Assembly (NCBI GenBank): GCA_003516025.1
Contig: CP023991.1
Span: forward strand, 330,001 to 362,000
Reading direction: 5' to 3'
DNA: 32,000 bases
Source of the DNA: Candidatus Saccharimonadota bacterium
GTDB taxonomy: Bacteria; Patescibacteriota; Saccharimonadia; Saccharimonadales; UBA4665
Of this stretch, positions 2,894 through 17,802 are shown one piece after another. The first letter of the stretch is position 1. Every line of letters begins with the position of its first letter. Under the pieces are notes generated by a model. It searched no databases. It saw only the letters and a program-made list of their open reading frames with translations, and had not been told where the DNA came from. Position numbers and translations under genes: made by a program.

Positions 2894-4221
<1,328 letters not shown>

Positions 4222-4222
<1 letters not shown>

Positions 4223-4551
4223 TGGTAATGAGGCAAGACGCCAGTACCGGCGAAATGGTAGAAGCGCCCGATGACGGCAGCGAGCAGAAAGCGGCTGATC
4301 CCAAAAAACCAATTATGTCGGTTAAAGTGTACGCCCCGTTCCAAGTGTATTTCGAAGGCGATGCCTACAGCGTGACGGCCGCAAACGAGACTGGGCCGTT
4401 CGATATTTTACCGCGCCACCATAACTTTATTTGTATGCTGGTTCCGTGTAACCTAGTCATTAAGACGCCGTACGAAGAGAAAGTTGTCAAGATTTCGCGT
4501 GCCCTGATGCACGTCAAAGCCGAGCGTGTCGTTGTGTTCGTCGACGTTTAG
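4222..4551 (+). CDS. atpC: F-type ATP synthase subunit epsilon (beta-sandwich domain only)
   Basis: Follows atpD with a TAATG overlap. Core MSVKVYAPFQVYFEGDAYSVTAANETGPFDILPRHHNFICMLVPCNLVIK matches the epsilon N-terminal domain pattern. An alternative internal start at ATG 4315 would remove a 31-aa acidic N-extension. Confidence 0.8.
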
Positions 4552-5570
4552 CCAGCGACGAAGTAGGAGAAGCCGAACACCTGGTTGGCCGGAGCAGGGT
4601 TGGCAGTGCAGACGCTAAAGCCCGTGTTAGTGCGCGTAACGTAGTACTGGGTCTGGCCAGCGGCGAGACCAACTGGGCTGATAATGACGTTAGGCGGGGA
4701 AGCGAAGGCTTGCGCGAAGTTTACCGAGATGAAGCAACCGGCAGTCGGGTTGTTGCCGCTGTTAATATTAACAGTACCAACAGTATCGGAACCGTTTACG
4801 GATGCGGTTCCACCGTTGCCAAGCACACCTGTGTTGATGGATGCCCGCTGCGCCGGAGCGCCGGTGAAAGCAATATGGTTTGGTACTTGCAATACGGCGT
4901 TACCGCTCATAATGAGCCGGGTAACGGTAATCTGCGAAGCGCCCATGGGCCCGCTAAAATTACTGGCACCAGATACGTTAACGGTGCTCAGGGTCGTAGT
5001 GCCTTGCATGATGGCATTCTGGGCTACTTGCAGGCTATTTATTTGCGTGTCAGCCAGGTTGGTCTTGCCAGCGACAGTAAGGGTGGCTGCCTGCAGGTCA
5101 CCACCCAGGCGGATGCGGCCGGCAACATCAAGATCTTTTTGTACCAGGAGCTGGCCGGTAAATACGGCGTTTCCCTGCACGGTCAGTGTCTGGGCGGCAT
5201 TACCGACGGTGGCGTCTGAGTTGGCTAGTTGCTTGAGGGCATCAGTCGTCAGCTGTTGAGTGGCGACTTCAGGAGTATCCGGCGCTTTCTTGCTGTTTAA
5301 GAAGCTGACCGCGCTGGTGGCGGCGACGACTACCATAATGAGAATAAAACCGAGTAGATAGACGTCGACTTTGTGCCAGAAAGCTTTGAGCGGATTAACT
5401 TTTTTTGCGGAGCCTTCGGTGGCGGCAGCTTCAAGTGATCCGGTGGCGTCAACCCCCTCCGCGGTCAGCTCTTCGTTGGTCTTTTCCAGAGCATCAGCGG
5501 GCGCGGTTTGAGTTACTCCGATATTCTCAGGAGTTGCGGACGTGTCTTCGGTTGGTTTTTTGTCTTCCAT
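4548..5570 (-). CDS. hypothetical membrane-anchored surface protein with beta-helix-like imperfect repeats
   Basis: 340 aa. Acidic, disordered ~70-aa N-terminus, one TM helix (VYLLGFILIMVVVAATSAVSFL), then a Gly/Thr/Asn/Val-rich region with repeating short-strand patterns (LTVQGNAVFTGQLLVQKDLDVAGRIRLGGDLQAATLTVAGKTNL...). Overlaps the atpC stop convergently by 4 nt. Confidence 0.75.
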   Translation of the reverse strand: MEDKKPTEDTSATPENIGVTQTAPADALEKTNEELTAEGVDATGSLEAAATEGSAKKVNPLKAFWHKVDVYLLGFILIMVVVAATSAVSFLNSKKAPDTPEVATQQLTTDALKQLANSDATVGNAAQTLTVQGNAVFTGQLLVQKDLDVAGRIRLGGDLQAATLTVAGKTNLADTQINSLQVAQNAIMQGTTTLSTVNVSGASNFSGPMGASQITVTRLIMSGNAVLQVPNHIAFTGAPAQRASINTGVLGNGGTASVNGSDTVGTVNINSGNNPTAGCFISVNFAQAFASPPNVIISPVGLAAGQTQYYVTRTNTGFSVCTANPAPANQVFGFSYFVAG

Positions 5571-5693: not shown

Positions 5694-6443
5694 ATGCAAA
5701 AACAAATGATGAGACGGTTTTTACATAGTGCGGCGCTCTCGGTACTTATATGTGTTGGCGCTGTCGGAATGGCGGCCGCGGATACCGCGAGCTCGTCGAA
5801 TTATATGGTGTCTGAGACGCAATTCGGTTCCGGCTCCGCATTGGAACAGTGTAGTGGCAGTTACTGTGCCCGCTCGGCAACCGGCGATTTAGTGAACGGC
5901 CAGGCCAAAAGCGATAATTACGGTGCCCGTTTCGGGTCGGTGACTACGGCAGACCCCTACCTGGAAGTTTATACTAGCGGTGGTTTATCTGATTTGGGGA
6001 CGCTTGACATCGACCGGACCGCCACCGCCACCGCCCAGATAAGTGTCCGCAACTATATGGGCGGCTACGTTATGCAAATTACCGGCCGGCCGCCGTCGCA
6101 GGGCAGCCACGAATTAAAGGCCATGGATAGTGATCCACAGTGTCCCTGTACATCGCAGATGGGGGCCGAGCAATTCGGCATTAATTTTATTGCCAACACT
6201 GCACCATCGGTCGGCGCTAACCCAACACAGGTGCCATCAAATACTTTCAGTTTTGGCCAGGCGGCGACGGATTATGACACGCCGAATCTATTTAAATATG
6301 TTGAAGGTGACATTGTGGCTCAGAGTAATATCAGTAGTGGACAGACCGATTACACGCTTTCAATGATATTCAATGTCTCCAACGTGACACCGGGTGGCCA
6401 GTACACCGGCTCTTACTCGGCAGTGGTGGTTCCGACGTATTAG
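5694..6443 (+). CDS. secreted protein A, smallest member of the locus paralog family (CscB/WxL-like by architecture; hypothetical)
   Basis: 249 aa. Signal peptide MQKQMMRRFLHSAALSVLICVGAVGMAAA/DT. Shares EQFGINF and the C-terminal TPGGQYTGSYSAVVVPTY-stop with B, C and E. Confidence 0.85.
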   Translation: MQKQMMRRFLHSAALSVLICVGAVGMAAADTASSSNYMVSETQFGSGSALEQCSGSYCARSATGDLVNGQAKSDNYGARFGSVTTADPYLEVYTSGGLSDLGTLDIDRTATATAQISVRNYMGGYVMQITGRPPSQGSHELKAMDSDPQCPCTSQMGAEQFGINFIANTAPSVGANPTQVPSNTFSFGQAATDYDTPNLFKYVEGDIVAQSNISSGQTDYTLSMIFNVSNVTPGGQYTGSYSAVVVPTY

Positions 6444-6462
6444 TTCATTAACTGTTAATGAA
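6444..6462 (+). terminator. weak AT-rich palindrome directly after gene A
   Basis: TTCATTAAC-t-GTTAATGAA begins right after the TAG stop. No U-tract follows, so terminator function is doubtful. Confidence 0.25.
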
Positions 6463-6483
6463 CTACTGCTGTGGATAAGTATC

Positions 6484-6512
6484 TTGTTGACACATAACGC
6501 TTATGCTACAAT
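6484..6512 (+). promoter_or_regulatory. putative extended -10 promoter of gene B
   Basis: TTGTTG (6484-6489; alternatively TTGACA at 6487-6492), then TGcTACAAT (6504-6512). GCTTATG lies in the spacer. Confidence 0.55.
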
Positions 6513-6580
6513 CCGCATTGTACCCACAAAAATATAAACAATAAGTCTCAAACCAATATAGAAAGGAGAATCTTTTCTCT

Positions 6581-8248
6581 ATGTATGTAAATAATATTAA
6601 GGAAGCTGTAACGCGCAGTGGGGCATTCGCGATGGCTGTGAGTATGCTGAGCATTCTGGGTATCAGTGCTTTCCCCTCACTGGTATTCGCTAACGCCCTC
6701 AACCCGCTGACAGAGCGTACATTGCTCATGACGAGCTCTGCTCCTGGCTACAATAATACGGACGGTTCCGGCAATGCGACATATGCACCTCCGGGCAGTG
6801 GTCCGAATGGCCAGAAAGCCGGACATAAGTTCAGTTTTAAAGTGAGTACCGACAGTAGCGGCAGTGGTGCTGCGATTGACGGTTTTTCATTCCAGTACTG
6901 TACTACTGCAGCTGGTAACTGTACCTCTCCTGGAAACGACACTGTTGTTGCACCTGGTGATGATCAAACTCCTGGCACTGCCGATGACCGTGTAGATAAT
7001 GCTGCAAATAAAGAGAGTGACCTCAACGTCAGCTATGCTAACCCCCAGGAAGTAACGGCTATTCCGACATCCAACCCAGATGGGTTGGCACTTGTTGATG
7101 CTGATAACAGCGACGGAAATTTCGCGGTACTGTGGGACAGCAATAATGACGGCGTTGACGAACTAAATGCTGGCTGGGAAATGGACGTACAAAACTACGA
7201 AACTCCTAGTGCGGTTACGGTAAAAAACAACTTCATCCGTCTCCGTAAGGCTACTACCGGTTCTGGCAACAGTGCTGCCCTGAAGCCTGCTCCGGGTGTC
7301 AAGATTACCGTAGTCTTCTATGCTACTGATGATAACTTCATTACGAATCCCGGCTCCGGTAACTTTTTCGTCCGGTTGAATACCTACAAGACAAATGTTT
7401 ACACCTCAATGCTACCGAACTCGAACACGAATATCCTCGACGGTGGTGTAACGGTTGCAAATGTCATGACTGATTCAATCCATATCACCACTAAGGTTCT
7501 GGAAACGATGAGCTTCTCAGTCGGTACTGAAAATCCAGATTACCTTCCAGCTGGCGGCGGACAACATGGTCCTTGTGATCCAATTGAGGACAATGATCAA
7601 ATCCAGCTGGGTAACGCCAATGCAGAATCTTCACTGGAAGTAAACACTGCGTATGACGCTAAATCATACTGGCGCCTGTCATCCAACTCCTCCGCTGGCG
7701 CATCAGTGTATTACTCAGGCAGTACGCTCAGCAACACCGTCGGTGATAAGATTGACCCAGCTGGTTTCTTCGTAGCTGATGGTTCCGGAAAAACTGCCTT
7801 CAACGGCACTAACGTGCTCGACTTCGCCCATGCCGGCGGACCAGGTGCGCTTAGTCATCCAGGAATGGAACAATTCGGATTAGCTTTCGACCCAACTGAA
7901 GATCGCGATAACGATGGCGTCGCTGACCTACCTGATGGTAACGTCGGTGAACAAGGCCCAGGCAATGACCTTAAAGGACTGATTATGAGTGACGCCTACA
8001 ACGGTGGCGCAGGTCGTATCAATAAGGAAGTGGTAGATCCCGATGATTCATCTCAAGATCTCCCTATTACGGCTAAGTTCGCTTTCGATCCTTCAAGCCA
8101 GTCAACACCAGCTCTGATTGCTAGCAACACTACTGATGTTGTTGACTGCTCGACCGGTAAGATGCGCTACATTGGTAACATCGCTGCTGCAACACCAGCC
8201 GGTGTATACACCACTAAGATTAACTACCTCGCTGCTCCTCAGTACTAG
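6581..8248 (+). CDS. secreted protein B, large paralog with two DxDxDG-type acidic loops (CscC/WxL-like by architecture; hypothetical)
   Basis: 555 aa. Signal peptide ending SLVFA/NA. AAAGGAGA SD upstream. Family motifs FQYCTTAAGNCTSP, VLETMSFSVG, EQFGLAF and the C-terminal TPAGVYTTKINYLAAPQY-stop. Confidence 0.9.
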   Translation: MYVNNIKEAVTRSGAFAMAVSMLSILGISAFPSLVFANALNPLTERTLLMTSSAPGYNNTDGSGNATYAPPGSGPNGQKAGHKFSFKVSTDSSGSGAAIDGFSFQYCTTAAGNCTSPGNDTVVAPGDDQTPGTADDRVDNAANKESDLNVSYANPQEVTAIPTSNPDGLALVDADNSDGNFAVLWDSNNDGVDELNAGWEMDVQNYETPSAVTVKNNFIRLRKATTGSGNSAALKPAPGVKITVVFYATDDNFITNPGSGNFFVRLNTYKTNVYTSMLPNSNTNILDGGVTVANVMTDSIHITTKVLETMSFSVGTENPDYLPAGGGQHGPCDPIEDNDQIQLGNANAESSLEVNTAYDAKSYWRLSSNSSAGASVYYSGSTLSNTVGDKIDPAGFFVADGSGKTAFNGTNVLDFAHAGGPGALSHPGMEQFGLAFDPTEDRDNDGVADLPDGNVGEQGPGNDLKGLIMSDAYNGGAGRINKEVVDPDDSSQDLPITAKFAFDPSSQSTPALIASNTTDVVDCSTGKMRYIGNIAAATPAGVYTTKINYLAAPQY

Positions 8249-8289
8249 GATATAATTCCTTACTTTTACGCCACATAGTTTGGCAGGAG

Positions 8290-8318
8290 AAAAAGACCCG
8301 GTTTACCGGGTCTTTTTA
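8290..8318 (+). terminator. intrinsic terminator after gene B
   Basis: AAAA-AGACCCGG-TTTA-CCGGGTCT-TTTTAT: an 8-bp GC-rich stem, a tetraloop and a U-tract. A-tract/U-tract symmetry suggests it may work in both directions. Confidence 0.85.
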
Positions 8319-8323
8319 TGCCT

Positions 8324-8353
8324 TAGACAATTCGATGGTTATTCTTGTACAAT
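8324..8353 (+). promoter_or_regulatory. putative promoter of gene C (leaderless)
   Basis: TAGACA (8324-8329), 18 nt, TACAAT (8348-8353). ATG 8360 begins 7 nt after the -10 box. Confidence 0.55.
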
Positions 8354-8359
8354 ACATCT

Positions 8360-9442
8360 ATGCATAAGCTCAATCATGTGAGGGTGAGGGTATTGCCGCA
8401 CCATGTTTTTTGGGCTGAGATGTTGTTGTCTCTGTTCTTCTCGGTAATCGTTTTTCTACCGAGCGTCGACGCGGCCGATGTCTCACGCTTAAGGCTGCGC
8501 AGTTTGTTCATGTATAACCCCAACCCGGGCGTTGTCACGGACTACAAGGTTTCTTTCACATATTCCACGACTACCACTGTCGGATCGGTTGACATGCTAT
8601 TTTGTACAAGCCCTATCCCGGATGATCCGTGTTACGTCCCTGTGGGGCTGGACTTATCTAATGTAAGTATGGGTGTACAGACGGGTGAAACAGGATACGA
8701 TGTCCAGGTCAAATCACCGAACCACATTGTCCTTAGCCGAGCGACGCCAGCTGTGGTAGACGCGGTAGCATCATCTTATACGCTGCATAATGTTAAAAAC
8801 CCGACGGACGATGTCCGGCCTTTCTCAATTCGTTTGAGTACCCATAGCGATAGCGCGGCGAACAATCCCGTTATTGATCTCGGTTCGGTTGTCGGTGGAC
8901 TCAATAATGGGATTTTTATAGAGACACAGGTGCCGCCGACACTCATGTTCTGTCTTGGCCAGGAGGTTTCCGTCGACTGTAGCGATGTAGACGGTGTAAA
9001 TTACCATGATATGGGAAATCTGGCGGCGGACACTACATTAACGGCTCAGTCACAGATGTCGGTAGGTACCAACGCGACTTCGGGGTTTGCTATTACTGTT
9101 AATGGCACCAGTATGAAAGCGGGCAATAATGTGATAGACGCCGTAGCTGCAATACCAACTACCAGTATTACGGGCAAGAACCAGTTCGGAATCAACTTAG
9201 TAAAAAATACCCAACCGGAAGTTGGCGGCGATCCTGACGGTGATGACTCGGTAGCTGCCGCAGCCGCAAATTACGACCAGCCGAACCGTTACTTTTTCCG
9301 AGATGGGGATGTAGTCGCAAGCTCTCCTCATGTCAGTTTATTGAAGCGATTTACAGTCAGCTATATCGTTAATACCGATCCAAACTTACGTGCCGGTGTC
9401 TATAGCACAACGATTACCTACATTTGCAGTGGCCGATTTTGA
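8360..9442 (+). CDS. secreted protein C, paralog of B and E (hypothetical)
   Basis: ORF track begins at TTG 8345. I prefer ATG 8360 because a TACAAT -10 box (8348-8353) lies 6 nt upstream, which fits a leaderless mRNA. Signal peptide ...FFSVIVFLPSVDA/AD. Motifs DYKVSFTYS, LFCTSPIPDDPCYVP, NQFGINL and the C-terminal RAGVYSTTITYICSGRF-stop. Confidence 0.85.
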   Translation: MHKLNHVRVRVLPHHVFWAEMLLSLFFSVIVFLPSVDAADVSRLRLRSLFMYNPNPGVVTDYKVSFTYSTTTTVGSVDMLFCTSPIPDDPCYVPVGLDLSNVSMGVQTGETGYDVQVKSPNHIVLSRATPAVVDAVASSYTLHNVKNPTDDVRPFSIRLSTHSDSAANNPVIDLGSVVGGLNNGIFIETQVPPTLMFCLGQEVSVDCSDVDGVNYHDMGNLAADTTLTAQSQMSVGTNATSGFAITVNGTSMKAGNNVIDAVAAIPTTSITGKNQFGINLVKNTQPEVGGDPDGDDSVAAAAANYDQPNRYFFRDGDVVASSPHVSLLKRFTVSYIVNTDPNLRAGVYSTTITYICSGRF

Positions 9443-9451
9443 TGCTACAAT
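9423..9451 (+). promoter_or_regulatory. putative extended -10 promoter of gene D, overlapping the 3' end of gene C
   Basis: TTTGCA (9423-9428), 17 nt including TGc, TACAAT (9446-9451). Confidence 0.5.
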
Positions 9452-9488
9452 TATGCTTATACTTAAAAGTAACAGTGAGAGAGATAAA

Positions 9489-10535
9489 ATGAAACGTTTA
9501 TTTACGTACGTCAGCAGTGTTACTCTGCTGCTTGCACTTATTGGCAATGTAGTTCCTGCTTCGGCTCAATCGACAGGCTCATCAGGCCTAAGTATTACGC
9601 CCCGCAAAAACCTCACACTAAAACCAGGCGAGTCGACCACTGATAAACTTACTATCGGTAACTTAAGCAAAAACGCGGATTTGGAAGTTAGCCTAAAAGC
9701 TATCGATTTTACTTTCATGAATGAAACGGGCACGCCAAAGTTATTGCTCGGCGAGAATACACAGCAGACAGCGTGGTCAGTTAGGCCGTTTCTGGAATTC
9801 ACTCAATCTGTTGTCGTGCCGGCTGGACAGTCTCGAACCGTTAATTACACGCTAACTATTCCAAAAAACCAGGGTGCCGGTTCTTACTACAGTGCTATCC
9901 AGTATGGTACGGGCGGTACTAATGGAGGAAATGTTAATTTGAGCGCTTCTGGAGTTACACTTGTATTTGTTTCTGTCCCCGGTGTCGTAAAAGAAGACAT
10001 GACACTTAAAAGGTTTGGTGCCTACCAACTAAACAAGGACAATATTACCGGTAGTTACGTTAAGATAGCCACAAATAAGCCAGAACAAGTCGCATTTACA
10101 TTACAAAATAATGGAAATGTTGCAGAAGCTCCCGTTGGCAGCGTAACTGTTAAATATATGTTCGGCAAGAAACAATGGAATATTGACAACGTCAACGAAA
10201 CGTCATCGCTTGCTCTTATCGGCCAAAGCCGTATTTATTTAAATTGTCTAGAATCTCAAGAACAACAGGTGAATGTTGCTGGTAGTGAAGCCAAAAACAA
10301 GACCTGTAAGTCACCAAAATTATGGCCCGGCCGTTACACGGCAACCCTCGATGCCTTCTACGGGCAAAACGGTAACAACACTCATCAGGTATCAGCTACC
10401 GCCAGTTTCTGGTACTTGCCATGGTGGTTCCTTATTACCATAATCGCTCTACTCACCATCATTTCAACCGCAGTACTGCTCATAGTCTATAAGGCAAAAC
10501 GAGCCGCCAGGGGCAAAAGCGCCCGGCGCCGCTAA
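9489..10535 (+). CDS. cell-surface protein D: signal peptide + two beta-rich halves + C-terminal TM anchor (CscA / DUF916-DUF3324-like by architecture)
   Basis: The track ORF starts at 9390, inside gene C. ATG 9489 gives a proper signal peptide (MKRLFTYVSSVTLLLALIGNVVPASA/QS). C-terminal TM helix WWFLITIIALLTIISTAVLLIVY followed by KAKRAARGKSARRR. Clear paralog of F. Confidence 0.85.
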   Translation: MKRLFTYVSSVTLLLALIGNVVPASAQSTGSSGLSITPRKNLTLKPGESTTDKLTIGNLSKNADLEVSLKAIDFTFMNETGTPKLLLGENTQQTAWSVRPFLEFTQSVVVPAGQSRTVNYTLTIPKNQGAGSYYSAIQYGTGGTNGGNVNLSASGVTLVFVSVPGVVKEDMTLKRFGAYQLNKDNITGSYVKIATNKPEQVAFTLQNNGNVAEAPVGSVTVKYMFGKKQWNIDNVNETSSLALIGQSRIYLNCLESQEQQVNVAGSEAKNKTCKSPKLWPGRYTATLDAFYGQNGNNTHQVSATASFWYLPWWFLITIIALLTIISTAVLLIVYKAKRAARGKSARRR

Positions 10536-10542
10536 CAAAAGT

Positions 10543-10569
10543 AAAAGGGGACTGTAAAAGTCCCCTTTT
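10543..10569 (+). terminator. intrinsic terminator after gene D
   Basis: AAAA-GGGGACT-GTAAA-AGTCCCC-TTTT. Confidence 0.85.
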
Positions 10570-10588
10570 CGCATAAACAGAATAAGGT

Positions 10589-10604
10589 TAGAATAAACAT
10601 AAGC
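10589..10604 (+). promoter_or_regulatory. putative -10 box of gene G plus AAACATAAGC box
   Basis: TAGAAT (10589-10594) followed directly by AAACATAAGC (10595-10604), then TATG with the start at 10606. No convincing -35 box. Confidence 0.45.
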
Positions 10605-10605
10605 T

Positions 10606-11523
10606 ATGAGGTTTGAAAAGCGCATCATTTTGTTACTGCAAGCTAGCATCCTGGCTTGTTCGTGCTTAGTGGCTTTCGCCGTACCGCAGGCTAGCGCTGC
10701 CATAAACAAAATACCCGAACCTGATCCCAAACCTAATTCATTCGGCCTTGAGGCCACTAAAACGCAGCCGGCGCCAACTCAGGGCGCGACTATATCGGTG
10801 CCCGGCAGCGGCGCGTCGTTTAGTACCTCGCCTGTAACGGTTAGCGGTATCTGTCCGAAGGGCTTGCTGGTACAGGTATACAACAACGGCGTGCTGGCGG
10901 GTTCCATAGACTGCGCCAACGGCAGCTTTAGTATCCAAGTAACACTCTATAATGGCACAAACGAATTAACGGCGACCGTTTTCGATGATCTTGACCAGGC
11001 GGGGCCGGAGTCAAACAAGGTGAGCGTTAGCTATAATAACGCGTCCATCACGGCATTTGGCCAACTTATTACGCTTACCAGCGCCTTTGGCCGTCGGGCT
11101 GCCGATCCGGGAACGCAGCTTGTCTGGCCACTGGTACTTTCGGGTGGCACTGGGCCGTACGCCTTTAGTATTGACTGGGGAGATGGCACTTCGCCTGAGC
11201 TTAAAAGCCAGGCACTGTCCGGGGAGGTTCGAATATCGCATACCTATAAGCAAGCTGGTGTGTACCATGTGATCGTTAAAGTAACCGATGCCAACGGTGT
11301 CAGCGCTTTCTTACAGTTAACGGCCGTAGCGAATGGTAAGGTAACTGCCGCCGAGACGACGGCAGCTAACACCAAAACCGTGGTCGTGACGAAAATGCTG
11401 TGGATTCCGGTGATCGTGGCAGCTATCATGCTGGTACCTGCGTTCTGGCTGGGCCGGCGTAGCGAACTGAAGAGCCTGCATAAGCGGCTGCAACATGATT
11501 TAGATACCTATAAAGATTTGTAA
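10606..11523 (+). CDS. membrane-anchored Ig-like/PKD-domain surface protein G
   Basis: 305 aa. Signal peptide ...VAFAVPQASA/AI. PKD-type block YAFSIDWGDGTSPE...ISHTYKQAGVYHVIVKVTDANG. C-terminal TM helix MLWIPVIVAAIMLVPAFWLG and a short charged tail. Confidence 0.85.
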   Translation: MRFEKRIILLLQASILACSCLVAFAVPQASAAINKIPEPDPKPNSFGLEATKTQPAPTQGATISVPGSGASFSTSPVTVSGICPKGLLVQVYNNGVLAGSIDCANGSFSIQVTLYNGTNELTATVFDDLDQAGPESNKVSVSYNNASITAFGQLITLTSAFGRRAADPGTQLVWPLVLSGGTGPYAFSIDWGDGTSPELKSQALSGEVRISHTYKQAGVYHVIVKVTDANGVSAFLQLTAVANGKVTAAETTAANTKTVVVTKMLWIPVIVAAIMLVPAFWLGRRSELKSLHKRLQHDLDTYKDL

Positions 11524-11530
11524 AAAAGTA

Positions 11531-11560
11531 TTGCGCATCATAACATAAGCATGATAAAAT
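11531..11560 (+). promoter_or_regulatory. putative extended -10 promoter of gene E
   Basis: TTGCGC (11531-11536), 18 nt, TGaTAAAAT (11552-11560). TAACATAAGC (11541-11550) lies in the spacer. An AT-rich leader of about 55 nt carrying an SD follows. Confidence 0.45.
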
Positions 11561-11621
11561 CTACTCGTTAACCATAAAAACCAAAAATATTAAAATAAAA
11601 TTAAAAAGAGGGATTAAACAT

Positions 11622-12785
11622 ATGAAATCCATAGGGATCTTCAACCGCCGCTCCAGCTCTCTCGTAGCCGCAACGGCCATGCTCCTGTCGGTCGTGGCGC
11701 CGAGTCTGGTATTTTCCAGCGCGTCAGCCGACCAGCTGACCGGCCGGAAGATAGAATTGAGCAGTTCCGCTGCCGGCGCGACCGACGTAGACTATAAAGT
11801 AACATTCACCGCTACTGAATCAGCGGCAGGATATGTCATTGATTTTTGTAGCAACAGCCCGTTGCTTGGTATGAGTTGTGTGCCACCCACCGGCATGTCC
11901 ACGGCTAGCCCTACTGCTTCAGGCGCTACAGTTGTTGACGGTCCTGCTGCACCTACAACAAACACCAGCTTAGAAATTACACAAGCTATTACGGCCGGTC
12001 CTGTGACTACAGAAGTAAGCGGCATAACCAATCCAACGACAGCCGGTCCATTGTACGCTCGTATCTATACCTATGAGGACATGGCTAATGCGGCCGTGTC
12101 ATCCAATCCAGGAACTACTGAAGACAATGGCGCAGTCGCACTGTCAATAACTAACAAAATTGGCGTATCCGCTGCCGTCCTGGAAACTATGACTTTCTGC
12201 GTATCTAAGACAGATACATCTTCGTCAGGCCATGAGAATTGCCTCGATCTAGGCGATGCCGAAGATTTGCCGAATATTCAGCTCGGTGAAGAGAGTGGCG
12301 GCGTCAAGGCGCTGCAAACTGGTATCGTAAGTAAGGGTACTATATGGACTCAAATTTCTACTAACGCCGTAGCAGGCGCCGTAGTAAGCATGAAGATTAA
12401 CAATCAATGCGGTGGCTTGAAATTGGCGGGCGTTAGTTCTCCTTGTAGCATTGCTCCTGCAATCAGCGGAAGTATTGTAGACAACGGCCCGGCTAAATTC
12501 GGTGTCAAAACCGGCACTGCGGTGGCTTCAGCGGACATCACTACCGCCCAGGGTACATACCAGCCTGCGACAGGCAGCGGTTATGGTGACAGTTCGTACT
12601 TCATGGGATTTGTTGACGGTGACGACGGTGTCACTAGCACGTATGGCGACCCTGTTCTTGACACCAACGGTGCTCCAATCAACAACATGAACATGCCGCT
12701 GGAATTTGCTGCTACGATTACTAACCAGACTCCAGCTGGCCTGTACTCGGCAGACCTCAATATGATTGCATCGGGTACATTCTAG
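11622..12785 (+). CDS. secreted protein E, paralog of B and C (hypothetical)
   Basis: 387 aa. AGAGGGA SD about 10 nt upstream. Signal peptide ...PSLVFSSASA/DQ. Motifs VDYKVTFTAT, DFCSNSPLLGMSCVPP, VLETMTFCVS, AKFGVKT and the C-terminal TPAGLYSADLNMIASGTF-stop. Confidence 0.9.
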   Translation: MKSIGIFNRRSSSLVAATAMLLSVVAPSLVFSSASADQLTGRKIELSSSAAGATDVDYKVTFTATESAAGYVIDFCSNSPLLGMSCVPPTGMSTASPTASGATVVDGPAAPTTNTSLEITQAITAGPVTTEVSGITNPTTAGPLYARIYTYEDMANAAVSSNPGTTEDNGAVALSITNKIGVSAAVLETMTFCVSKTDTSSSGHENCLDLGDAEDLPNIQLGEESGGVKALQTGIVSKGTIWTQISTNAVAGAVVSMKINNQCGGLKLAGVSSPCSIAPAISGSIVDNGPAKFGVKTGTAVASADITTAQGTYQPATGSGYGDSSYFMGFVDGDDGVTSTYGDPVLDTNGAPINNMNMPLEFAATITNQTPAGLYSADLNMIASGTF

Positions 12786-12816
12786 AAAAATCCGCCAGCC
12801 CACGGAACTCATTTAC

Positions 12817-12826
12817 AAACATAAGC
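12817..12826 (+). repeat. third exact copy of the AAACATAAGC box, upstream of gene F
   Basis: ATTTAC-AAACATAAGC-GTG. The same 10-mer occurs at 5682-5691 and 10595-10604, each time right after a -10-like hexamer and right before a start codon. Confidence 0.5.
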
Positions 12827-12874
12827 GTGTCTGTTAAGGTAAGTACAAGTAACCACTATGGGAGTTAAAAACAA

Positions 12875-13924
12875 GTGATAAAACAAACACTACGGGTTGC
12901 ATTGTTCGCGACAGTGCTTTGTGGGCTTGTAGCTACGTCCAGTGTGTCTCCTGTCTTTGCCGCGACGACCGCTCCTGCCAAAGCCAAGACGACGCCGCCT
13001 AATACCAGCACTAACACGCTTAAAATATCCCCTATCCGCACCGAAGTAACGATCATTGCAGGACAGACGAGTACCGTTAAGACAATTGTTACGAATATTA
13101 CCGGCAGTCCGATTGTGGTTGAACCGATTGAAAACGACTTCGTGGCCGGTGACGAAAATGGTACGCCAGCCCTCATCCTTGACCAGAACAGCTACGCCCC
13201 GACCCACAGCCTGAAGCGTTTTATGGTACCGCTTAAGAATGTGACGATTAATCCGGGCGAAGCCAAAGAAATCCCTGTAACTATTACCGTTCCAAAGAAT
13301 GCGCAGGCTGGTGGTTACTTCGGCGCCGTGCGCTTTGCTCCCGCCAACACCAGCGGTAGCCAGCAAGTCAACCTCAGCCCGAGCGTTGCCTCCCTGATTC
13401 TTCTGACCGTTCCCGGTCCGACCACCGAACAACTGAACCTGACGAACTTCGACATCCAACAAGATGGCAGCTCCGGCTCCAATTTCCGCACGCCGGAAAA
13501 TCTTCAGGCTTTCATCCGCTTTGAAAATAAGGGTAATGTACAACAGGCACCCGTCGGCCAGATCAACGTTAAAAAGGGCAGTAAAGTCGTGTACACCGCC
13601 GACTTTAACCAGACCGATCCGAAAGCCAACGTCCTGCCCGACAGCGCCCGCCGCTGGACCGTTCCGCTGAAAAAGCTTGGGAAATTTGGTAAATATACCG
13701 TCAGCGCCACCTTTACCTACGGCAGCAAAAACGAAAGCATTGATGTCACTAAGACCGTTTGGATTGTGCCAACGACCTACATCTACGCTGGCATCATTGC
13801 AATTGTTGTCCTGGTAGCCATCGTTGGTGGCTTCATCCTCTTCCTTAAGGGCTACAAGCGCCGCCTGTTGGGTGGCTCATCCCGCTCCGGCCGCGGTGGC
13901 CGTAATAATTACCGCCGCCGCTAG
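12875..13924 (+). CDS. cell-surface protein F: paralog of D (CscA / DUF916-DUF3324-like by architecture)
   Basis: 349 aa. GTG start with GGAG SD 10 nt upstream. Signal peptide ...SSVSPVFA/AT. C-terminal TM helix YAGIIAIVVLVAIVGGFILFL followed by an Arg/Gly-rich tail (RRLLGGSSRSGRGGRNNYRRR). Multiple conserved blocks shared with D. Confidence 0.9.
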   Translation: MIKQTLRVALFATVLCGLVATSSVSPVFAATTAPAKAKTTPPNTSTNTLKISPIRTEVTIIAGQTSTVKTIVTNITGSPIVVEPIENDFVAGDENGTPALILDQNSYAPTHSLKRFMVPLKNVTINPGEAKEIPVTITVPKNAQAGGYFGAVRFAPANTSGSQQVNLSPSVASLILLTVPGPTTEQLNLTNFDIQQDGSSGSNFRTPENLQAFIRFENKGNVQQAPVGQINVKKGSKVVYTADFNQTDPKANVLPDSARRWTVPLKKLGKFGKYTVSATFTYGSKNESIDVTKTVWIVPTTYIYAGIIAIVVLVAIVGGFILFLKGYKRRLLGGSSRSGRGGRNNYRRR

Positions 13925-14001: not shown

Positions 14002-15063
14002 ATGAGTCAAACCCCAGGTCAAAAAGTCTATGTCGGCATGTCCGGCGGCGTCGACAGTTCGGTTACGGCAGCACTGCTACAAGAGCAGGGCTATGACGTA
14101 ACCGGCGTATACATGAAAAACTGGAGCCAGGATCTGCCCGGCTTTGAGTGCCCGTGGAAAGAAGACTATCAGGACGCCAAGCGCGTAGCCGTGCAACTCG
14201 GCATACCGTTTAAAATGTACGACTTCGAAACCGAGTACCGCGAACGTGTAGTCGGCTACATGCTCGACGGCTATAAGGCCGGTATCACCCCAAACCCTGA
14301 CATTATGTGCAACCAGGAGGTTAAGTTTAAGCTCTTCCTCGATACGGCACTGCAGGACGGCGCCGATATGATCGCTACCGGCCACTACGCCCGTAGCGAC
14401 AATGGCCAGCTGCTCACCGGCATAGATGCCAATAAAGACCAGAGCTACTTCCTGTACCGCGTAGCTGAAAACGCGCTTCAGCACTCGCTGATGCCAATTG
14501 GTGAATACGAAAAACCAAAAGTTCGTGAGCTTGCCAAAAAGTTCGGCTTGGCAACGGCGGAGAAAAAGGACAGCCAGGGCATCTGCTTTGTGGGCAAAGT
14601 CGGCATAAAAGAGTTCCTCCAACAGTTCGTCAGTACCAAGCCAGGAGCTATCCTGGACGCCCAGGGCACCACGCTTGGCGAGCACGACGGCGCCTTGTTT
14701 TATACCATCGGCCAGCGCCACGGCCTGAACGTCGGTGGAGGTCTGCCGTATTACGTCATTGGCAAAGACATGGCAAAAAATGAAGTCTATGTCACGACCG
14801 ATTTGCAAGACCCCGAGTTATGGACCCGGGAATATACTATTACCAGCCCGCACTGGATTAACGCCAAACCGGAAGAGGGCACTACGGACACAAAATACCG
14901 CGTACGAACCAGATACAGGGCGCCACTGGTAGCGTGTACCGTCCAGAAAGATGGTAATAACTGGAAAATCGCTATGGACGAGGATGTCCGGGCACTTACT
15001 CCCGGCCAGTCCGCCGTGCTCTACGAAGACCAGCGGGTCGTCGGCGGCGGTATCGTTATCTAA
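14002..15063 (+). CDS. mnmA: tRNA 2-thiouridine(34) synthase MnmA
   Basis: PP-loop VGMSGGVDSSV, plus NPDIMCN and GICFVG motifs. The track start 13954 lies inside the upstream terminator hairpin. ATG 14002 sits 10 nt after a perfect extended -10 (TGCTATAAT). Confidence 0.93.
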   Translation: MSQTPGQKVYVGMSGGVDSSVTAALLQEQGYDVTGVYMKNWSQDLPGFECPWKEDYQDAKRVAVQLGIPFKMYDFETEYRERVVGYMLDGYKAGITPNPDIMCNQEVKFKLFLDTALQDGADMIATGHYARSDNGQLLTGIDANKDQSYFLYRVAENALQHSLMPIGEYEKPKVRELAKKFGLATAEKKDSQGICFVGKVGIKEFLQQFVSTKPGAILDAQGTTLGEHDGALFYTIGQRHGLNVGGGLPYYVIGKDMAKNEVYVTTDLQDPELWTREYTITSPHWINAKPEEGTTDTKYRVRTRYRAPLVACTVQKDGNNWKIAMDEDVRALTPGQSAVLYEDQRVVGGGIVI

Positions 15064-15102
15064 CCCATAGCTGTTATCACAACGCTTTTGTCTCATTTAC
15101 TA

Positions 15103-15131
15103 TTGACATAAACGTTTATATATGACAATAT
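15103..15131 (+). promoter_or_regulatory. putative promoter upstream of the high-GC gene and its structured leader
   Basis: TTGACA (15103-15108), 17 nt ending in TGa, CAATAT (15126-15131). The spacer contains the perfect palindrome ATAAACGTTTAT (15108-15119). Confidence 0.5.
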
Positions 15132-15193
15132 TAATTGTCTTTGTCGAGCAGCTATTGCTCCAAAGTACCTTTACAAGCAAACAGGGAATTATG

Positions 15194-15249
15194 GGTTATT
15201 CCGGGATATCAGCTTACCGGCTCAGGTAATTTGATACCTCGGAATAACC
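15194..15249 (+). other. long imperfect hairpin in the 5' region of the high-GC gene
   Basis: GGTTATTCCG (15194-15203) pairs perfectly with CGGAATAACC (15240-15249). Inner pairing GGaTATCA/TGATAcC and TTACC/GGTAA surrounds the loop GGCTCA (15219-15224). An alternative hairpin CCTCGG-AATAAC-CTGAGG (15237-15254) competes for the 3' arm. Confidence 0.5.
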
Positions 15250-15301
15250 TGAGGAACCAGCAGAGCCTATTCATAGGTTCTACTACAGCAGGGGGAAACA
15301 A

Positions 15302-15754
15302 GTGCGTACTCGCTCCAACAAGATCCAGCTCGTGACCATCGGGCTCCTGGCGTTCGCCATGGTGCTCACCGCGCTGTTCGGCCCGTCCACGTCTGCGGCT
15401 CCGGTCCAGGACAACGGCGTCTCGGCCAGCGACCTCGCCGCCGGCGACATCTCCGACAACGTGGTCGACTCGCAGCTCGGTGGCACCAACCTCGGCAGTC
15501 CCGACACCGACACCGTGGCATCCAGCCTCGTGCGGATGTCCTACTGCGGCATGCGCAACGGACGCATCCTCATCGGCGGCTGGGGGGCCTTCACCTACCG
15601 GCTCGACGCCAGCAGCCTCAAGCCCGCCAGCATGAAGTACGGCCAGGTCTACAACTTCACCGTGGACACCAACTCGTTCGTGGCCTACCACGTGGCCTAC
15701 GCGCCGCGCGCCGGTGTCCTGGACATCCCGTCCTGCCGGCGGATCGGGGCCTGA
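15302..15754 (+). CDS. small secreted protein of unknown function on a high-GC island (putatively horizontally acquired)
   Basis: 150 aa. GTG start with AGGGGGA SD 6 nt upstream. Sec-type signal peptide (IGLLAFAMVLTALFGPSTSA/AP). Only 9 of 150 sense codons end in A or T. Mature part has 2 Cys. I recognise no family. Confidence 0.75.
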   Translation: MRTRSNKIQLVTIGLLAFAMVLTALFGPSTSAAPVQDNGVSASDLAAGDISDNVVDSQLGGTNLGSPDTDTVASSLVRMSYCGMRNGRILIGGWGAFTYRLDASSLKPASMKYGQVYNFTVDTNSFVAYHVAYAPRAGVLDIPSCRRIGA

Positions 15755-15768
15755 CGGTCTGAACTGAT

Positions 15769-15807
15769 CCAGCGGCCGGTGGCAGCAACATCGCCATCGG
15801 CCGCTGG
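15769..15807 (+). terminator. GC-only hairpin after the high-GC gene (no U-tract)
   Basis: CCAGCGGCCG (15769-15778), a 19-nt loop, CGGCCGCTGG (15798-15807). Followed by a C-rich run (CAACCCCCCCCACCTCC) rather than T residues. Confidence 0.45.
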
Positions 15808-15876
15808 ACTACCGCGCTGGTACAACCCCCCCCACCTCCTCTTTTGACTCCTTGTTTGCTTGTATATTCCCCTCAT

Positions 15877-15905
15877 TTATCATCTGCAATTACCTCTGTT
15901 ATACT
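15877..15905 (+). promoter_or_regulatory. putative extended -10 promoter of alaS (leaderless)
   Basis: Weak -35 TTATCA (15877-15882), then TGtTATACT (15897-15905). ATG 15913 begins exactly 7 nt downstream. Confidence 0.55.
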
Positions 15906-15912
15906 AGACGGC

Positions 15913-17802
15913 ATGACAGCACAAGAAATCCGCCAAAAATATCTCGATTATTATAAAGAGCGTGGCCATAATGTTATAGCGCGGGCCCAGCTTGTGCCGT
16001 ACAACGATCCAACGACTTTGTTTACCGGCTCCGGCATGCAGCCGTTATTGCCGTATTTGCTCGGTGAAGTTCATCCGGACGGCTCCCGCCTGGTGGACTC
16101 ACAGACCTGCTTGCGGGCTCAGGATATCGAAGAAGTCGGCGATAACCGCCATACTACTTTCTTCGAAATGCTTGGTAACTGGAGTCTCGGCGACTACTTT
16201 AAGCAGGATCAGCTGCCATGGGTCTTCAGTTTCCTGGTTGATGAAGTCGGTCTTGATCCCCATAAATTATATGTAACTTGCTTCCAGGGTGACGCGGCTA
16301 ACAATATCCCCAAAGACACCGAAGCAGCTGATATTTGGCGTAACCTGTTTGACCGGCGCGGTATCGAAGCCCGCGAAGTGGAAGTCGGCAGCGAAGAAAA
16401 CGGCTACCAGGTCGGCGTACCCGAAGGCGGCCGCATATTCTTTTACGACGCCAGCAAAAACTGGTGGTGCCGCGGTGGTAAGATCGGCGATATGCCGGTT
16501 GGTGAGCCAGGCGGCCCGGACAGCGAAATCTTTTATGAATTCGACTTTATTGAGCATGACACAAAGTGGGGTCCTAAGTGCCACCCGAACTGCGACTGCG
16601 GCCGCTTTATGGAAATTGGCAACTCCGTGTTTATGGAATACGTGCGGCGCGAAACCGGCTTCGAAAAGCTGCCGAAACAGAACGTTGACTTTGGCGGGGG
16701 CTTAGAGCGCATCGCGGCTGCTAAACTTAACAGCCCGGACGTTTTTAAGATCAGTATTTTGCAGCCTATCATCGCCAAACTGGAAGAAATTTCCGGTAAG
16801 AGCTATGACAGCCACACCGAGAGCATGCGGGTTATCGCTGACCATCTGCGGGCTTCGGCCTTCCTGGCGGTAGACGGCACGGCGCCAAGTAATAAGACGC
16901 AGGGTTACGTGATGCGCCGCCTGATGCGCCGTGCTATCCGCTTCGCCTTTGACCTTGGCATTGAGCAAAACTTCGTGGAGCAGGTCGTGCCGGTTATCGC
17001 AGACTTATATGCTAACGATTATCCGGAAGTCCGTGGCAACCGCGAACGGGTGATCGAAGTACTGGTAAAAGAGGAAAAGGCTTTCCGCCAGACGCTGCGC
17101 AAAGGCCTGCAAATGATGCAGAAACTATCAGCCTCCGGTTTGTCCGGCGAAGAAATATTCGCGCTCTATGACACCTATGGTTTTCCGGTTGAGCTCAGTA
17201 CAGAGGAAGCCTTTAAACAGAACATTAGCCTCAGTGAAAACTGGCGCCAAGAGTTTGACGTTAAAATGGCCGAGCAGCGCCAGCGCTCGCAAACTGCCGC
17301 TAAAGGAACGTTTAAGGGCGGCCTTGGCGGCCAGACGTTGCAGCATAAAAAGTATCATACCGCGACGCACCTGATGTACCAGGCGCTGCGCACGGTACTT
17401 GGCGACCATGTTATCCAACACGGCAGTAACATTACCGAAGAGCGCCTTAGGTTTGATTTTAGCCATTCCGAAAAAATGACGCCGGAGCAGATCAAACAGG
17501 TTGAGGATATCGTAAATGAGCAAATTGCTAAAGACCTCGCGGTAACCTGGGAAGAACATCCCACCAGCTACGCCATTAACGAGCTGCATGTACTAGGAGC
17601 TTTCGGCGACCGTTACGGTGACATTGTTAAGTGCTACCGCATGCAGGCGGCAAGCGAAGACAAGCCATTCAGTTTCGAGATTTGCGGCGGCCCGCACGTT
17701 GACCATACTGGTCAGCTAGCCGAAGAAGGTAAAAGCTTCAAGATTCTGAAAGAAGAGTCGTCCAGCGCCGGTATCCGCCGCATTAAAGCCGTTCTGCAGT
17801 AA
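15913..17802 (+). CDS. alaS: alanine--tRNA ligase, short form lacking the C-terminal C-Ala domain
   Basis: MTAQEIRQKYLDYYKERGHNVI..., FTGSGMQP, RFMEIGNSVFMEY, and editing-domain HTATHL and CGGPHV motifs. The track start TTG 15844 is rejected: ATG 15913 sits exactly 7 nt after an extended -10 (TGTTATACT). Confidence 0.93.
   Translation: MTAQEIRQKYLDYYKERGHNVIARAQLVPYNDPTTLFTGSGMQPLLPYLLGEVHPDGSRLVDSQTCLRAQDIEEVGDNRHTTFFEMLGNWSLGDYFKQDQLPWVFSFLVDEVGLDPHKLYVTCFQGDAANNIPKDTEAADIWRNLFDRRGIEAREVEVGSEENGYQVGVPEGGRIFFYDASKNWWCRGGKIGDMPVGEPGGPDSEIFYEFDFIEHDTKWGPKCHPNCDCGRFMEIGNSVFMEYVRRETGFEKLPKQNVDFGGGLERIAAAKLNSPDVFKISILQPIIAKLEEISGKSYDSHTESMRVIADHLRASAFLAVDGTAPSNKTQGYVMRRLMRRAIRFAFDLGIEQNFVEQVVPVIADLYANDYPEVRGNRERVIEVLVKEEKAFRQTLRKGLQMMQKLSASGLSGEEIFALYDTYGFPVELSTEEAFKQNISLSENWRQEFDVKMAEQRQRSQTAAKGTFKGGLGGQTLQHKKYHTATHLMYQALRTVLGDHVIQHGSNITEERLRFDFSHSEKMTPEQIKQVEDIVNEQIAKDLAVTWEEHPTSYAINELHVLGAFGDRYGDIVKCYRMQAASEDKPFSFEICGGPHVDHTGQLAEEGKSFKILKEESSSAGIRRIKAVLQ

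Follow-up and report, generated by a model that had tools for sequence, protein, structure and literature searches.

A single GC-rich gene lies between the housekeeping genes mnmA and alaS in the 32,000-nucleotide stretch of a Candidatus Saccharimonadota genome analysed here (contig CP023991.1, positions 330,001 to 362,000; the whole stretch is called the window), and the question it raises is whether so deviant a composition marks a recent transfer or is a property of the gene itself. A preliminary description had taken this island for a candidate acquisition from a high-GC donor of the actinobacterial type. We favour, with moderate confidence, a different reading, in which the island is the cargo of a self-contained, end-clamped mRNA cassette that recurs in Saccharimonadales and here occupies a hypervariable intergenic slot. 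This reading builds on a conserved architecture, on covariation in a 5'-terminal hairpin (P1) and in a long 5'-3' helix, on unrelated cargo carried in one frame, on a general enrichment of the cargo in G and C at third codon positions (GC3), and on hammerhead ribozymes that follow some of the copies. The functional unit exceeds the GC-rich island and spans approximately 15103-15864, taking in an AT-rich promoter and leader; the repeats that flank the island, a 16-nt inverted repeat and an 8-bp direct repeat, indicate that it extends into AT-rich DNA on both sides.

The island is the GC maximum among the 540-bp stretches of the 32 kb (0.676 versus a mean of 0.516, standard deviation 0.038, z approximately 4.2). 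Counted per 60 nt, GC content runs from 48% at 15241-15300 to 60% at 15301-15360 and 72% at 15361-15420, and at the other end from 68% at 15781-15840 to 37% at 15841-15900, in agreement with earlier hand counts. The open reading frame (ORF; 15302..15754, plus strand) has a GTG start, encodes 150 aa and follows the Shine-Dalgarno sequence AGGGGGA (15290..15296, plus strand). Its GC content is 0.678 (67.8%), with GC1/2/3 = 0.59/0.51/0.94; the window mean is 51.6%, and the genes beside the island have a GC3 of 0.56-0.64. A recount gave the same start, the same Shine-Dalgarno sequence and the same codon figures as the preliminary description, exactly 9 of the 150 codons ending in A or T. The product contains 9 arginines versus 3 lysines.

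The slot is bounded upstream by mnmA (14002..15063, plus strand), which encodes a tRNA 2-thiouridylase (Pfam tRNA_Me_trans with its M and C domains, E 7e-77), and downstream by alaS (15913..17802, plus strand; Pfam tRNA-synt_2c, E 3e-115), both as originally named. The window mnmA shares 86% identity with its counterpart in Ca. Saccharibacteria bacterium RYN_415, and the genome is of the Saccharibacteria type that had been supposed. The best 80 loci for mnmA in the species-genome collection were all Saccharimonadales-type. In 69 of them alaS follows mnmA across a gap of 18 bp to 5248 bp, and neither the island gene nor a relative of its protein was found in any of the 69 gaps. The variation in gap size together with the absence of the island gene from all 69 indicates that the slot is hypervariable and that the island is an accessory insertion, which is the outcome of a synteny comparison suggested at the outset. 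Excision of approximately 15100-15871 would leave approximately 80 nt, which matches the short gaps seen in related genomes.

The contents of the slot were also compared in their own right. Between the window (15064-15912) and loci L004-L083 the gap contents are unrelated from genome to genome. The closest relative (L004) has a 551-aa ORF on the minus strand, and L010, L032 and L056 have GC3-rich membrane proteins. In several relatives a disordered-looking, acidic, Ala/Pro/Gly-rich small protein (M-G-L-F-S-H-D-D-K-K ... E-P-K) is conserved directly 5' of alaS (L023 8253-8660, L024 8344-8730, L026 5219-5626, L049 8494-8961 and L061 8358-8675, all on the plus strand), and its gene is not found in the window. 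The GC-rich patches in the relatives' slot were rejected as the same thing as the island, the Ala/Pro/Gly-rich gene being GC-rich by way of its amino-acid composition and not its GC3.

Homologues of the island protein were sought with HMMER against 1.84 billion cluster representatives of approximately 15 billion proteins and with a profile search of 5.8 billion clusters. Only three true homologues were recovered (P0005, P0008 and P0009). All were assembled from publicly available sequencing runs, and they share 29-35% identity with the window protein and 50-55% with one another. A motif scan of 185,579 GTDB species genomes, guided by the family profile, and tblastn of 50,697 phage records gave no match. 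The homologue contigs (L001-L003) are of moderate GC content, 55-60%. L001 has the longest context and a usable marker gene, and its Der protein shares 72-76% identity with proteins that carry the name Ca. Saccharimonadales, which by sequence assigns the contig to Saccharimonadales; L002 has local synteny in common with L001. The cargo family was found at three different genomic places, namely the window, L001/L002 and L003. Compared by blastn, the window and the three homologous loci are 70-79% identical in DNA in the AT-rich upstream region and the 3' hairpin, against 29-35% for the proteins.

Two further observations were made during these searches. The top phmmer matches after the protein itself (P0003, P0004 and P0007) were rejected as homologues: they are giant cadherin/Ig-like repeat proteins that match the low-complexity D/S/G linker only (residues 29-126), through many repeats. 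The linker GDISDNVVDSQLGGTNLGSPD (residues 38-72) resembles the repeat motif LGDISDQVxVADLGGYDVDNPE of P0004, a repeat protein of 1,950 aa. In addition, P0046, a Der protein encoded on a 1.18-Mb contig, is 72% identical to Saccharimonadales Der and carries the NCBI label 'Verrucomicrobiae bacterium'; its genome is probably a mislabelled Saccharibacteria genome.

The four homologous loci share a frame as well as a gene. In the same order, they contain a TTGACA-17/18-TAnAAT promoter, P1, the 5' arm of the long-range helix, a leader hairpin, GGGGGA with the start codon, the ORF, a GC-rich hairpin and the 3' arm. On the plus strand of the window, the sigma70-type promoter lies at 15103..15132 (-35 box TTGACA at 15103-15108, 18-nt spacer, -10 box AATATT at 15127-15132; 10/12 matches in the promoter scan). 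It is followed by P1 at the predicted 5' end of the transcript (15138..15168; TCTTTGTCGAG, a 9-nt loop and CTCCAAAGTAC), by the 5' arm TACAAGCAAACAGGGA (15172..15187; inverted repeat I3) and by the leader hairpin P3 (15194..15249; inverted repeat I1), whose 25-nt arms are 84% complementary and which is present in the predicted fold. The GGGGGA of the Shine-Dalgarno sequence is kept 5' of all four homologous ORFs. Beyond the ORF, still on the plus strand, lie a GC-rich hairpin in the 3' untranslated region (UTR; 15768..15808; inverted repeat I2, fold energy z -3.1) and the 3' arm TCCTTGTTTGCTTGTA (15849..15864; the partner in inverted repeat I3). The preliminary description had correctly noted that the 3' UTR hairpin has no U tract, and had drawn it as a GC-only 10-bp stem at 15769-15807; the stem is in fact 16 bp long, with 15 of 16 positions paired. 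The hairpin is conserved in L001-L003 with base changes on both strands, and it was matched to L002 by blastn.

The inverted repeat formed by 15172-15187 and 15849-15864 pairs at 15 of 16 positions, with a G.U in addition, and the expectation of a 16-nt inverted repeat by chance in 1.2 kb is, by our own estimate, approximately 0.01. The energy of the arm-to-arm duplex in the window is -26.9 kcal/mol. The arms vary among loci and match inside each locus: they are AAGCAAACAGGGA and TCCTTGTTTGCTT in the window, AAGCACACAAGGA and TCCTTGTGTGTTT in L003, and AAGCATCGCAAGGA and TCCTTGCATGCTT in L001 and L002. The P1 consensus is yTTTGTnGAG, a loop and CTCCAAAG, after which the 5' arm begins with TTGACAAGCA.

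The same frame was found around unrelated genes. A 22-nt leader motif retrieved 13 metagenome loci (11 of them distinct) in which the same promoter, P1 and 5' arm precede unrelated small ORFs, and altogether the frame encloses unrelated small ORFs in at least 14 further cassettes beyond the four homologous genes. The cargo comprises membrane proteins, soluble proteins of unknown function, a DUF7736 protein and a phrog_8937 member (L070); two of these match phage protein families (phrog_8937, 3.8e-17; DUF7736/phrog_18585). Promoters of the form TTGAC(A/T)-17/18-TAnAAT are present in the other cassettes, and in all of them the -10 box ends 5-9 nt 5' of P1. A hairpin also occupies the position that matches the leader hairpin P3. 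In every cassette with enough sequence, except the disrupted L087, the ORF or ORFs are closely followed by a matching 3' arm, 0.55-1.5 kb downstream of the 5' arm. The 5'-3' duplex energies range from -19 to -29 kcal/mol in the 13 cassettes for which they were computed, and the ORF is in the sense orientation of the promoter in 18 of 18 cassettes. In L087 (oriented; 1538-2715) IS3-like transposase ORFs stand on the opposite strand directly after the leader and no 3' arm was found; this locus looks like a cassette disrupted by an insertion sequence (IS).

A covariance model of the 5' element (P1 and 5' arm), designated R1, scored all 13 motif-retrieved loci at 54-66 bits, and it scored window 15138-15193 at 55.8 bits (E 8e-12), the window sequence having been part of its seed alignment. 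R1 added three copies. One lies in L070 (34 bits), and L001 and L085 each gained a second copy, that of L085 in tandem; the L070 copy and the second L001 copy are independent matches from outside the seed. L070 is a bona fide Saccharibacteria contig from a metagenome-assembled genome, and its cassette adjoins mnmA. The 5' element is not in Rfam 15, and Rfam returned nothing for the leader, the arms or the 3' structure of the L085 type beyond chance matches to miRNA-like hairpins. In viral contigs (IMG/VR) the 22-nt leader motif was unmatched. Two shorter motifs that did match there were rejected, as they matched at approximately chance frequency and the five best matches to the 5' motif lacked P1, a promoter and a matching 3' arm.

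To assess pairing, P1 and the two arms of 15 cassettes were aligned without gaps. In this alignment 89% of cells pair, a percentage that is inflated because 3' arms were located by their complementarity to 5' arms; the bias bears less on the conserved core CTGCTTGTC, on the constancy of its position and on the double changes. Pairs with changes on both sides numbered 10, versus 4.3 +/- 1.3 in shuffles (0 of 500 reached 10) and 2-6 in slid controls. In P1, 97% of cells were paired and 2 pairs had double changes, the exchanges being U:A to C:G and U.G to C:G. The 12-bp core of the long helix contains, on the plus strand, 6 G.U versus 1 A.C cells, an asymmetry that weakly favours pairing in the sense RNA, given only 7 informative cells.

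Folding of the window copy points in the same direction. The predicted 735-nt transcript folds to -333 kcal/mol, compared with -270 +/- 7 for shuffles (z -9.5), and both the minimum free energy (MFE) structure and the centroid contain P1, the 16-bp 5'-3' helix, the leader hairpin and the 3' hairpin. A C8 run (15826..15833, plus strand), present in the window only and absent from L001-L003, pairs in the predicted MFE fold with the five consecutive G residues of the Shine-Dalgarno sequence. This pairing is a possible translational lock of the window copy alone and is not conserved in the homologues.

Directly 3' of the 3' arm, type III hammerheads (Rfam RF00008) were detected in L086 (38.7 bits, E 6.5e-5) and L091 (36.7 bits, E 2.4e-4), both scores being lower than the Rfam gathering score of 48.5 bits. 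A third, in L070, has a complete CUGAUGA...GAAA core, stems I and III, an NUH site and a large stem II insertion. All three contain the full CUGANGA...GAAA core, stems I-III and an NUH cleavage triplet, and CATGTTCG, which is conserved after many 3' arms, is the 5' strand of hammerhead stem III. In L001, L003 and L093 an intrinsic terminator follows the 3' arm. We know of no description of a ribozyme placed directly after a 3' arm that pairs with the 5' leader, and no paper was found in which Saccharibacteria or the candidate phyla radiation are connected with hammerheads or self-cleaving RNAs.

The two tandem cassettes of L085 (minus strand) end in one conserved structure at approximately 4880-4970 and 4280-4370, which consists of GTTCGTC TGTGC, a hairpin GGTTTTC...GAAAACC and TCAGA GATGAAC AGAT and sits in the hammerhead position of other cassettes. 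It may be another processing element. Sub-families of cassettes have further motifs in common in the part of the 3' UTR that precedes the 3' arm, one being the hairpin loop ATGCTACCACAG in L089 and L091 and the second ACATGACTyTCAGAG or CTCTCAGAG in L085, L093, L096 and L070.

Taken together, these features suggest how a cassette mRNA could be protected. Burial of RNA ends is a classical recipe against end-dependent RNases. P1 would start at the predicted first transcribed base and leave the mRNA without a free 5' tail, while the 3' arm would pair beside P1 and the ribozyme, where present, would cut approximately 10 nt past the clamp helix. The 5'-terminal hairpin and the 5'-3' helix would then bury both ends of the mRNA and confer resistance to end-dependent RNases, and a cassette would thus express its one accessory protein autonomously and from a long-lived message. 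Sister cassettes continue, directly after the 3' arm, with a type III hammerhead or an intrinsic terminator; the window copy has neither and abuts the alaS leader.

The composition of the cargo was examined within this family of cassettes. Each homologue is the GC maximum of its own contig, at approximately 67% GC and a GC3 of 0.87-0.94. At four-fold sites in shared codon families, third-base identity among the four genes was 0.23-0.54, versus 0.40-0.51 expected from composition. Because identity does not rise above this expectation, synonymous sites are saturated and have turned over fully while staying G or C; with GC3 kept at 0.87-0.94, the bias is maintained, and is not what remains of one recent transfer as its trace fades. 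No single import in the past with later amelioration can give such a pattern, which calls for either repeated recent imports from an unsampled high-GC reservoir or a GC3 upheld in place. Moreover, in all 11 cassettes that could be tested the cargo had a higher GC3 than the genes beside it (mean difference +0.27, Wilcoxon p 0.001; +0.38 in the window). Since the enrichment is general to cassette cargo and the sites are saturated, composition cannot be read here as a signal of recent transfer. We infer that the GC3 bias is a maintained property of cassette cargo and not a residue of recent import from Actinobacteria. It could reflect GC-biased repair at a recombination hot spot, or selection that favours coding regions which are compact, rich in G+C and resistant to RNases, and both explanations fit the saturation result and the exclusively Saccharimonadales-type contexts; the third candidate, a hidden high-GC reservoir, needs donors that the largest protein collections have missed. 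As a separate observation, the 35-kb contig L001 carries further small ORFs with a GC3 of 0.80-0.92 (3487-3843, 3957-4250, 7000-7365 and 9396-9791) and no R1 element beside them, and GC3-rich accessory genes may be commoner than the recognisable frame.

These results bear directly on the origin first proposed for the island, namely that the host, a donor of high GC content and actinobacterial type, recently supplied the gene, that it was kept as a secreted factor for interaction with the host, and that its 94% GC3 is donor composition not yet ameliorated. Members of the Saccharibacteria group live on Actinobacteria, the genome is a Saccharibacteria genome, and the gene is absent from the slot in 69 relatives. 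The GC3 of 0.94, the GC2 of 0.51 and the Arg:Lys ratio of 9:3 are what such a donor would leave, the codon choice resembling that of 70% GC genomes, and the phage-family matches of two other cargos indicate that some cargo is common to mobile gene pools. No homologue was found in any high-GC lineage, however, among approximately 15 billion proteins, the GTDB species genomes and the 50,697 phage records. The three that exist stand in moderate-GC contigs (L001 Saccharimonadales, L002 syntenic with L001), all with the AT-rich frame. Saturation with GC3 kept would require four independent recent imports from an unsampled clade that carries the same AT-rich leader and arms, and GC3 enrichment is typical of nearly all cargo in the frame. 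The hallmarks of mobility are also absent, with no tRNA, integrase or transposase and just the 8-bp direct repeat. A host donor draws on composition and lifestyle only, fails the homologue search that the preliminary description had itself proposed, and is unlikely.

If the island is cassette cargo, the cassette probably moves or is exchanged as a whole unit, because one cargo family occurs at three loci and the window copy stands in a slot of 18 bp to 5.2 kb. A possible route is homologous exchange through the conserved ends or the flanking genes. The window copy is bracketed by an 8-bp direct repeat, CTCATTTA (15092-15099 and 15872-15879, plus strand), the left copy just 5' of the -35 box and the right copy 7 nt 3' of the 3' arm, which may be a target duplication. 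The preliminary description had seen no integrase, no tRNA and no flanking direct repeats; the first two absences stand, and the third does not, given this repeat and the 16-nt inverted repeat. No direct repeat or target-site duplication was found around the other cassettes, and the CTCATTTA repeat is particular to the window copy. Neither a tRNA nor any Rfam family was found in the window, and no integrase, transposase or reverse transcriptase was found anywhere in it. A diversity-generating retroelement was rejected as well, the island ORF having no repeat elsewhere in the window and a reverse transcriptase being absent.

The repeats could alternatively act at the level of DNA, as protein recognition sites of a MITE-like (miniature inverted-repeat transposable element) or recombinase-mobilised cassette or of an invertible segment, with RNA pairing incidental. 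The arm core, GACAAGCAGAC / GTCTGCTTGTC, is conserved across unrelated cargo, as such sites would be, and the occurrence of one cargo family at three loci, the direct repeat around the window copy and the IS3-like transposase beside the L087 leader agree with this proposal. Conservation nevertheless passes both arms, into the promoter and P1 upstream and into hammerhead stem III or a terminator downstream, and the arms are therefore not the termini of an element. The other cassettes have no direct repeats, the window encodes no recombinase, transposase or reverse transcriptase, and the constant orientation of 18 of 18 cassettes gives no sign of inversion. P1 covaries as a hairpin and starts at the predicted +1, and G.U is tolerated above A.C on the plus strand. 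This DNA-level reading is accordingly improbable, though mobility of the unit and an RNA clamp can coexist and are not mutually exclusive. An assembly chimera, in which a high-GC fragment of another organism was joined into a Saccharibacteria contig, would account for the abrupt changes in composition at approximately 15300 and 15840 and had been raised at the outset, but it can be dismissed as extremely improbable, because the left change falls at the leader-ORF boundary inside the conserved architecture and the right change just 5' of the 3' arm, three further assemblies, made independently from other sequencing runs, show the same arrangement of leader, GC-rich ORF and 3' arm, the 5' arm on the AT-rich side complements the 3' arm beyond the GC-rich part and covaries with it, the Shine-Dalgarno sequence and GTG start are correctly placed, and two source records, with contigs of 1,005,782 bp and 1,005,352 bp, contain the protein.

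The reading of the island as cargo of an end-clamped cassette must itself be set against several points that weigh on the other side. The 3' end of the window copy is undefined: 48 nt separate the 3' arm from alaS, a weak promoter-like site lies at 15877-15905, 5' of alaS, and by promoter/terminator scan and Rfam there is neither a terminator nor a ribozyme, hammerheads included, between 15865 and alaS. Read-through into alaS is possible, and the window cassette may perhaps be just co-transcribed with it. The cassette is rare, at 1-2 copies in approximately 1 Mb of other Saccharimonadales loci, no R1 copy being found in the 79 of them besides L070; beyond the window, L070 and L001 the taxonomy of the contigs comes from GC content and gene context only. 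No mechanism or enzyme of mobility is evident among the proteins of the window. Where transcription starts and where the transcript ends are predicted, as are the clamp and whatever stabilisation it may bring. To these are added the inflated pairing percentage, the few informative G.U and A.C cells and the hammerhead scores, all described above.

The island protein is, as originally described, a Sec-type secreted small protein of no known family; it is fast-evolving and had no match in Pfam, PHROGs, PADLOC or PDB sequences. It comprises a Sec signal peptide (approximately residues 1-32), a disordered D/S/G-rich linker (33-72) and a small beta-barrel domain (73-150). Structure prediction of the mature domain, which the preliminary description had suggested, gave a small beta-barrel of approximately 75 residues (AlphaFold2 pLDDT 75-89 for residues 71-130), for which Foldseek returned weak OB-like small-barrel matches only. 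Cys82, Cys145 and a C-terminal C-x-R-I-G motif are invariant across the homologues, and the island protein contains no glutamate. It is probably a surface or secreted factor of the epibiont. Elsewhere in the window, directly 5' of mnmA, six plus-strand ORFs lie in a row at 5694-13924 with hydrophobic N-termini that by eye resemble signal peptides or membrane anchors; two have sub-threshold matches to WxL-interacting peptidoglycan-binding-like domains and one has a PKD domain, and the row appears to be a surface-protein cluster.

Several consequences follow. In an epibiont whose hosts are rich in GC, an island of a single gene with 94% GC3 looks like a textbook signal of transfer; here it proves to be a maintained property of a gene class, which calls for caution with composition-based calls in streamlined genomes. 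A conserved RNA architecture outside Rfam joins a hairpin at the 5' terminus to a 5'-3' helix that spans the gene and, in some members, to a hammerhead. We put forward tentatively, and with less assurance than the reading of the island itself, that Saccharimonadales contain an undescribed class of modular units with a covarying clamp, some of them trimmed by hammerheads, in which one frame is reused for fast-evolving, high-GC3 ORFans and relocates between slots. If this is true, a new structured-RNA motif is at hand, some process, be it biased repair or selection acting on the mRNA, keeps GC3 close to 90% where the genome as a whole has 52% GC, and bacterial hammerheads, whose function is to our knowledge largely unknown, gain a concrete job in making the 3' end of a clamped mRNA. 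The cargo, consisting of small secreted, membrane and unknown-function proteins in an obligate epibiont, includes plausible host-interaction factors, and R1 provides a sequence handle for finding such cargo in any Saccharibacteria genome. The natural design could also serve the building of stable mRNAs.

Among known systems, the closest parallel in RNA folding is hok/sok, in which fold-back pairing of the 5' and 3' ends is thought to give a compact, stable and, in hok, translationally inert mRNA. As in hok mRNA, a helix between the 5' leader and the 3' end of the cassette encloses the ORF, and in the window fold the five G residues of the Shine-Dalgarno sequence also pair with the C8 run. The cassettes differ in their cargo, diverse proteins of 60-260 aa (here a secreted one of 150 aa) and not a small membrane toxin, and in a modular frame over unrelated ORFs, some with a 3' ribozyme. 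No antisense RNA gene is evident in the window, where only the promoter scan bears on antisense transcription. As type III hammerheads, the ribozymes of L086, L091 and L070 are ordinary in their core; their fixed place after the 3' arm sets them apart, and the window copy has none.

In organisation, the cassettes recall the PeSL cassettes of T4-type phages, reportedly described by Arbiol et al. in 2010 as units of a promoter and a stem-loop that flank ORFan genes. In both, regulatory ends (promoter and hairpin) bracket unrelated small genes of unknown function in hyperplastic regions, and the repeats could mediate shuffling. The present cassettes are chromosomal, with none found in IMG/VR, have a 5'-3' helix and ribozymes, and usually occur as single copies and not as arrays. 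Integron cassettes are likewise modular, single-ORF units with a structured 3' element and diverse, mostly unknown cargo of atypical composition. In contrast to them, the cassettes have no attC consensus, intI or attI, each has its own promoter, and the complementary halves lie 0.55-1.5 kb apart around the ORF; inspection of the 3' hairpin revealed no R''/R' (GTTRRRY) cores.

Mobile DNA offers partial parallels only. Like a classical genomic island, the island has a deviant composition, a patchy distribution among relatives and an insertion point between housekeeping genes, whereas it has no donor homologue, integrase or tRNA, consists of one gene in 0.77 kb, and has a composition that is kept over saturating divergence and is common to the cargo of the frame. 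Correia and MITE-type elements measure 100-150 bp, contain no ORF, and occur in hundreds of near-identical copies whose inverted repeats are transcribed into mRNA helices. The cassettes resemble them in having repeats that would be transcribed into mRNA, with helices there that would affect processing or stability, and differ in that the repeats enclose a gene and the copies are few and divergent. Compared with a MITE or an IS, the arms are not termini, target duplications are absent at the other copies and the window holds one copy; compared with an invertible switch, the window has no recombinase and the orientation is constant in 18 cassettes. The island does not have the full set of defining features of any family compared, and with no paper found that describes the cassette frame and no entry for it in Rfam, we rate the cassette as a new kind of unit, of which the island between mnmA and alaS is one member.

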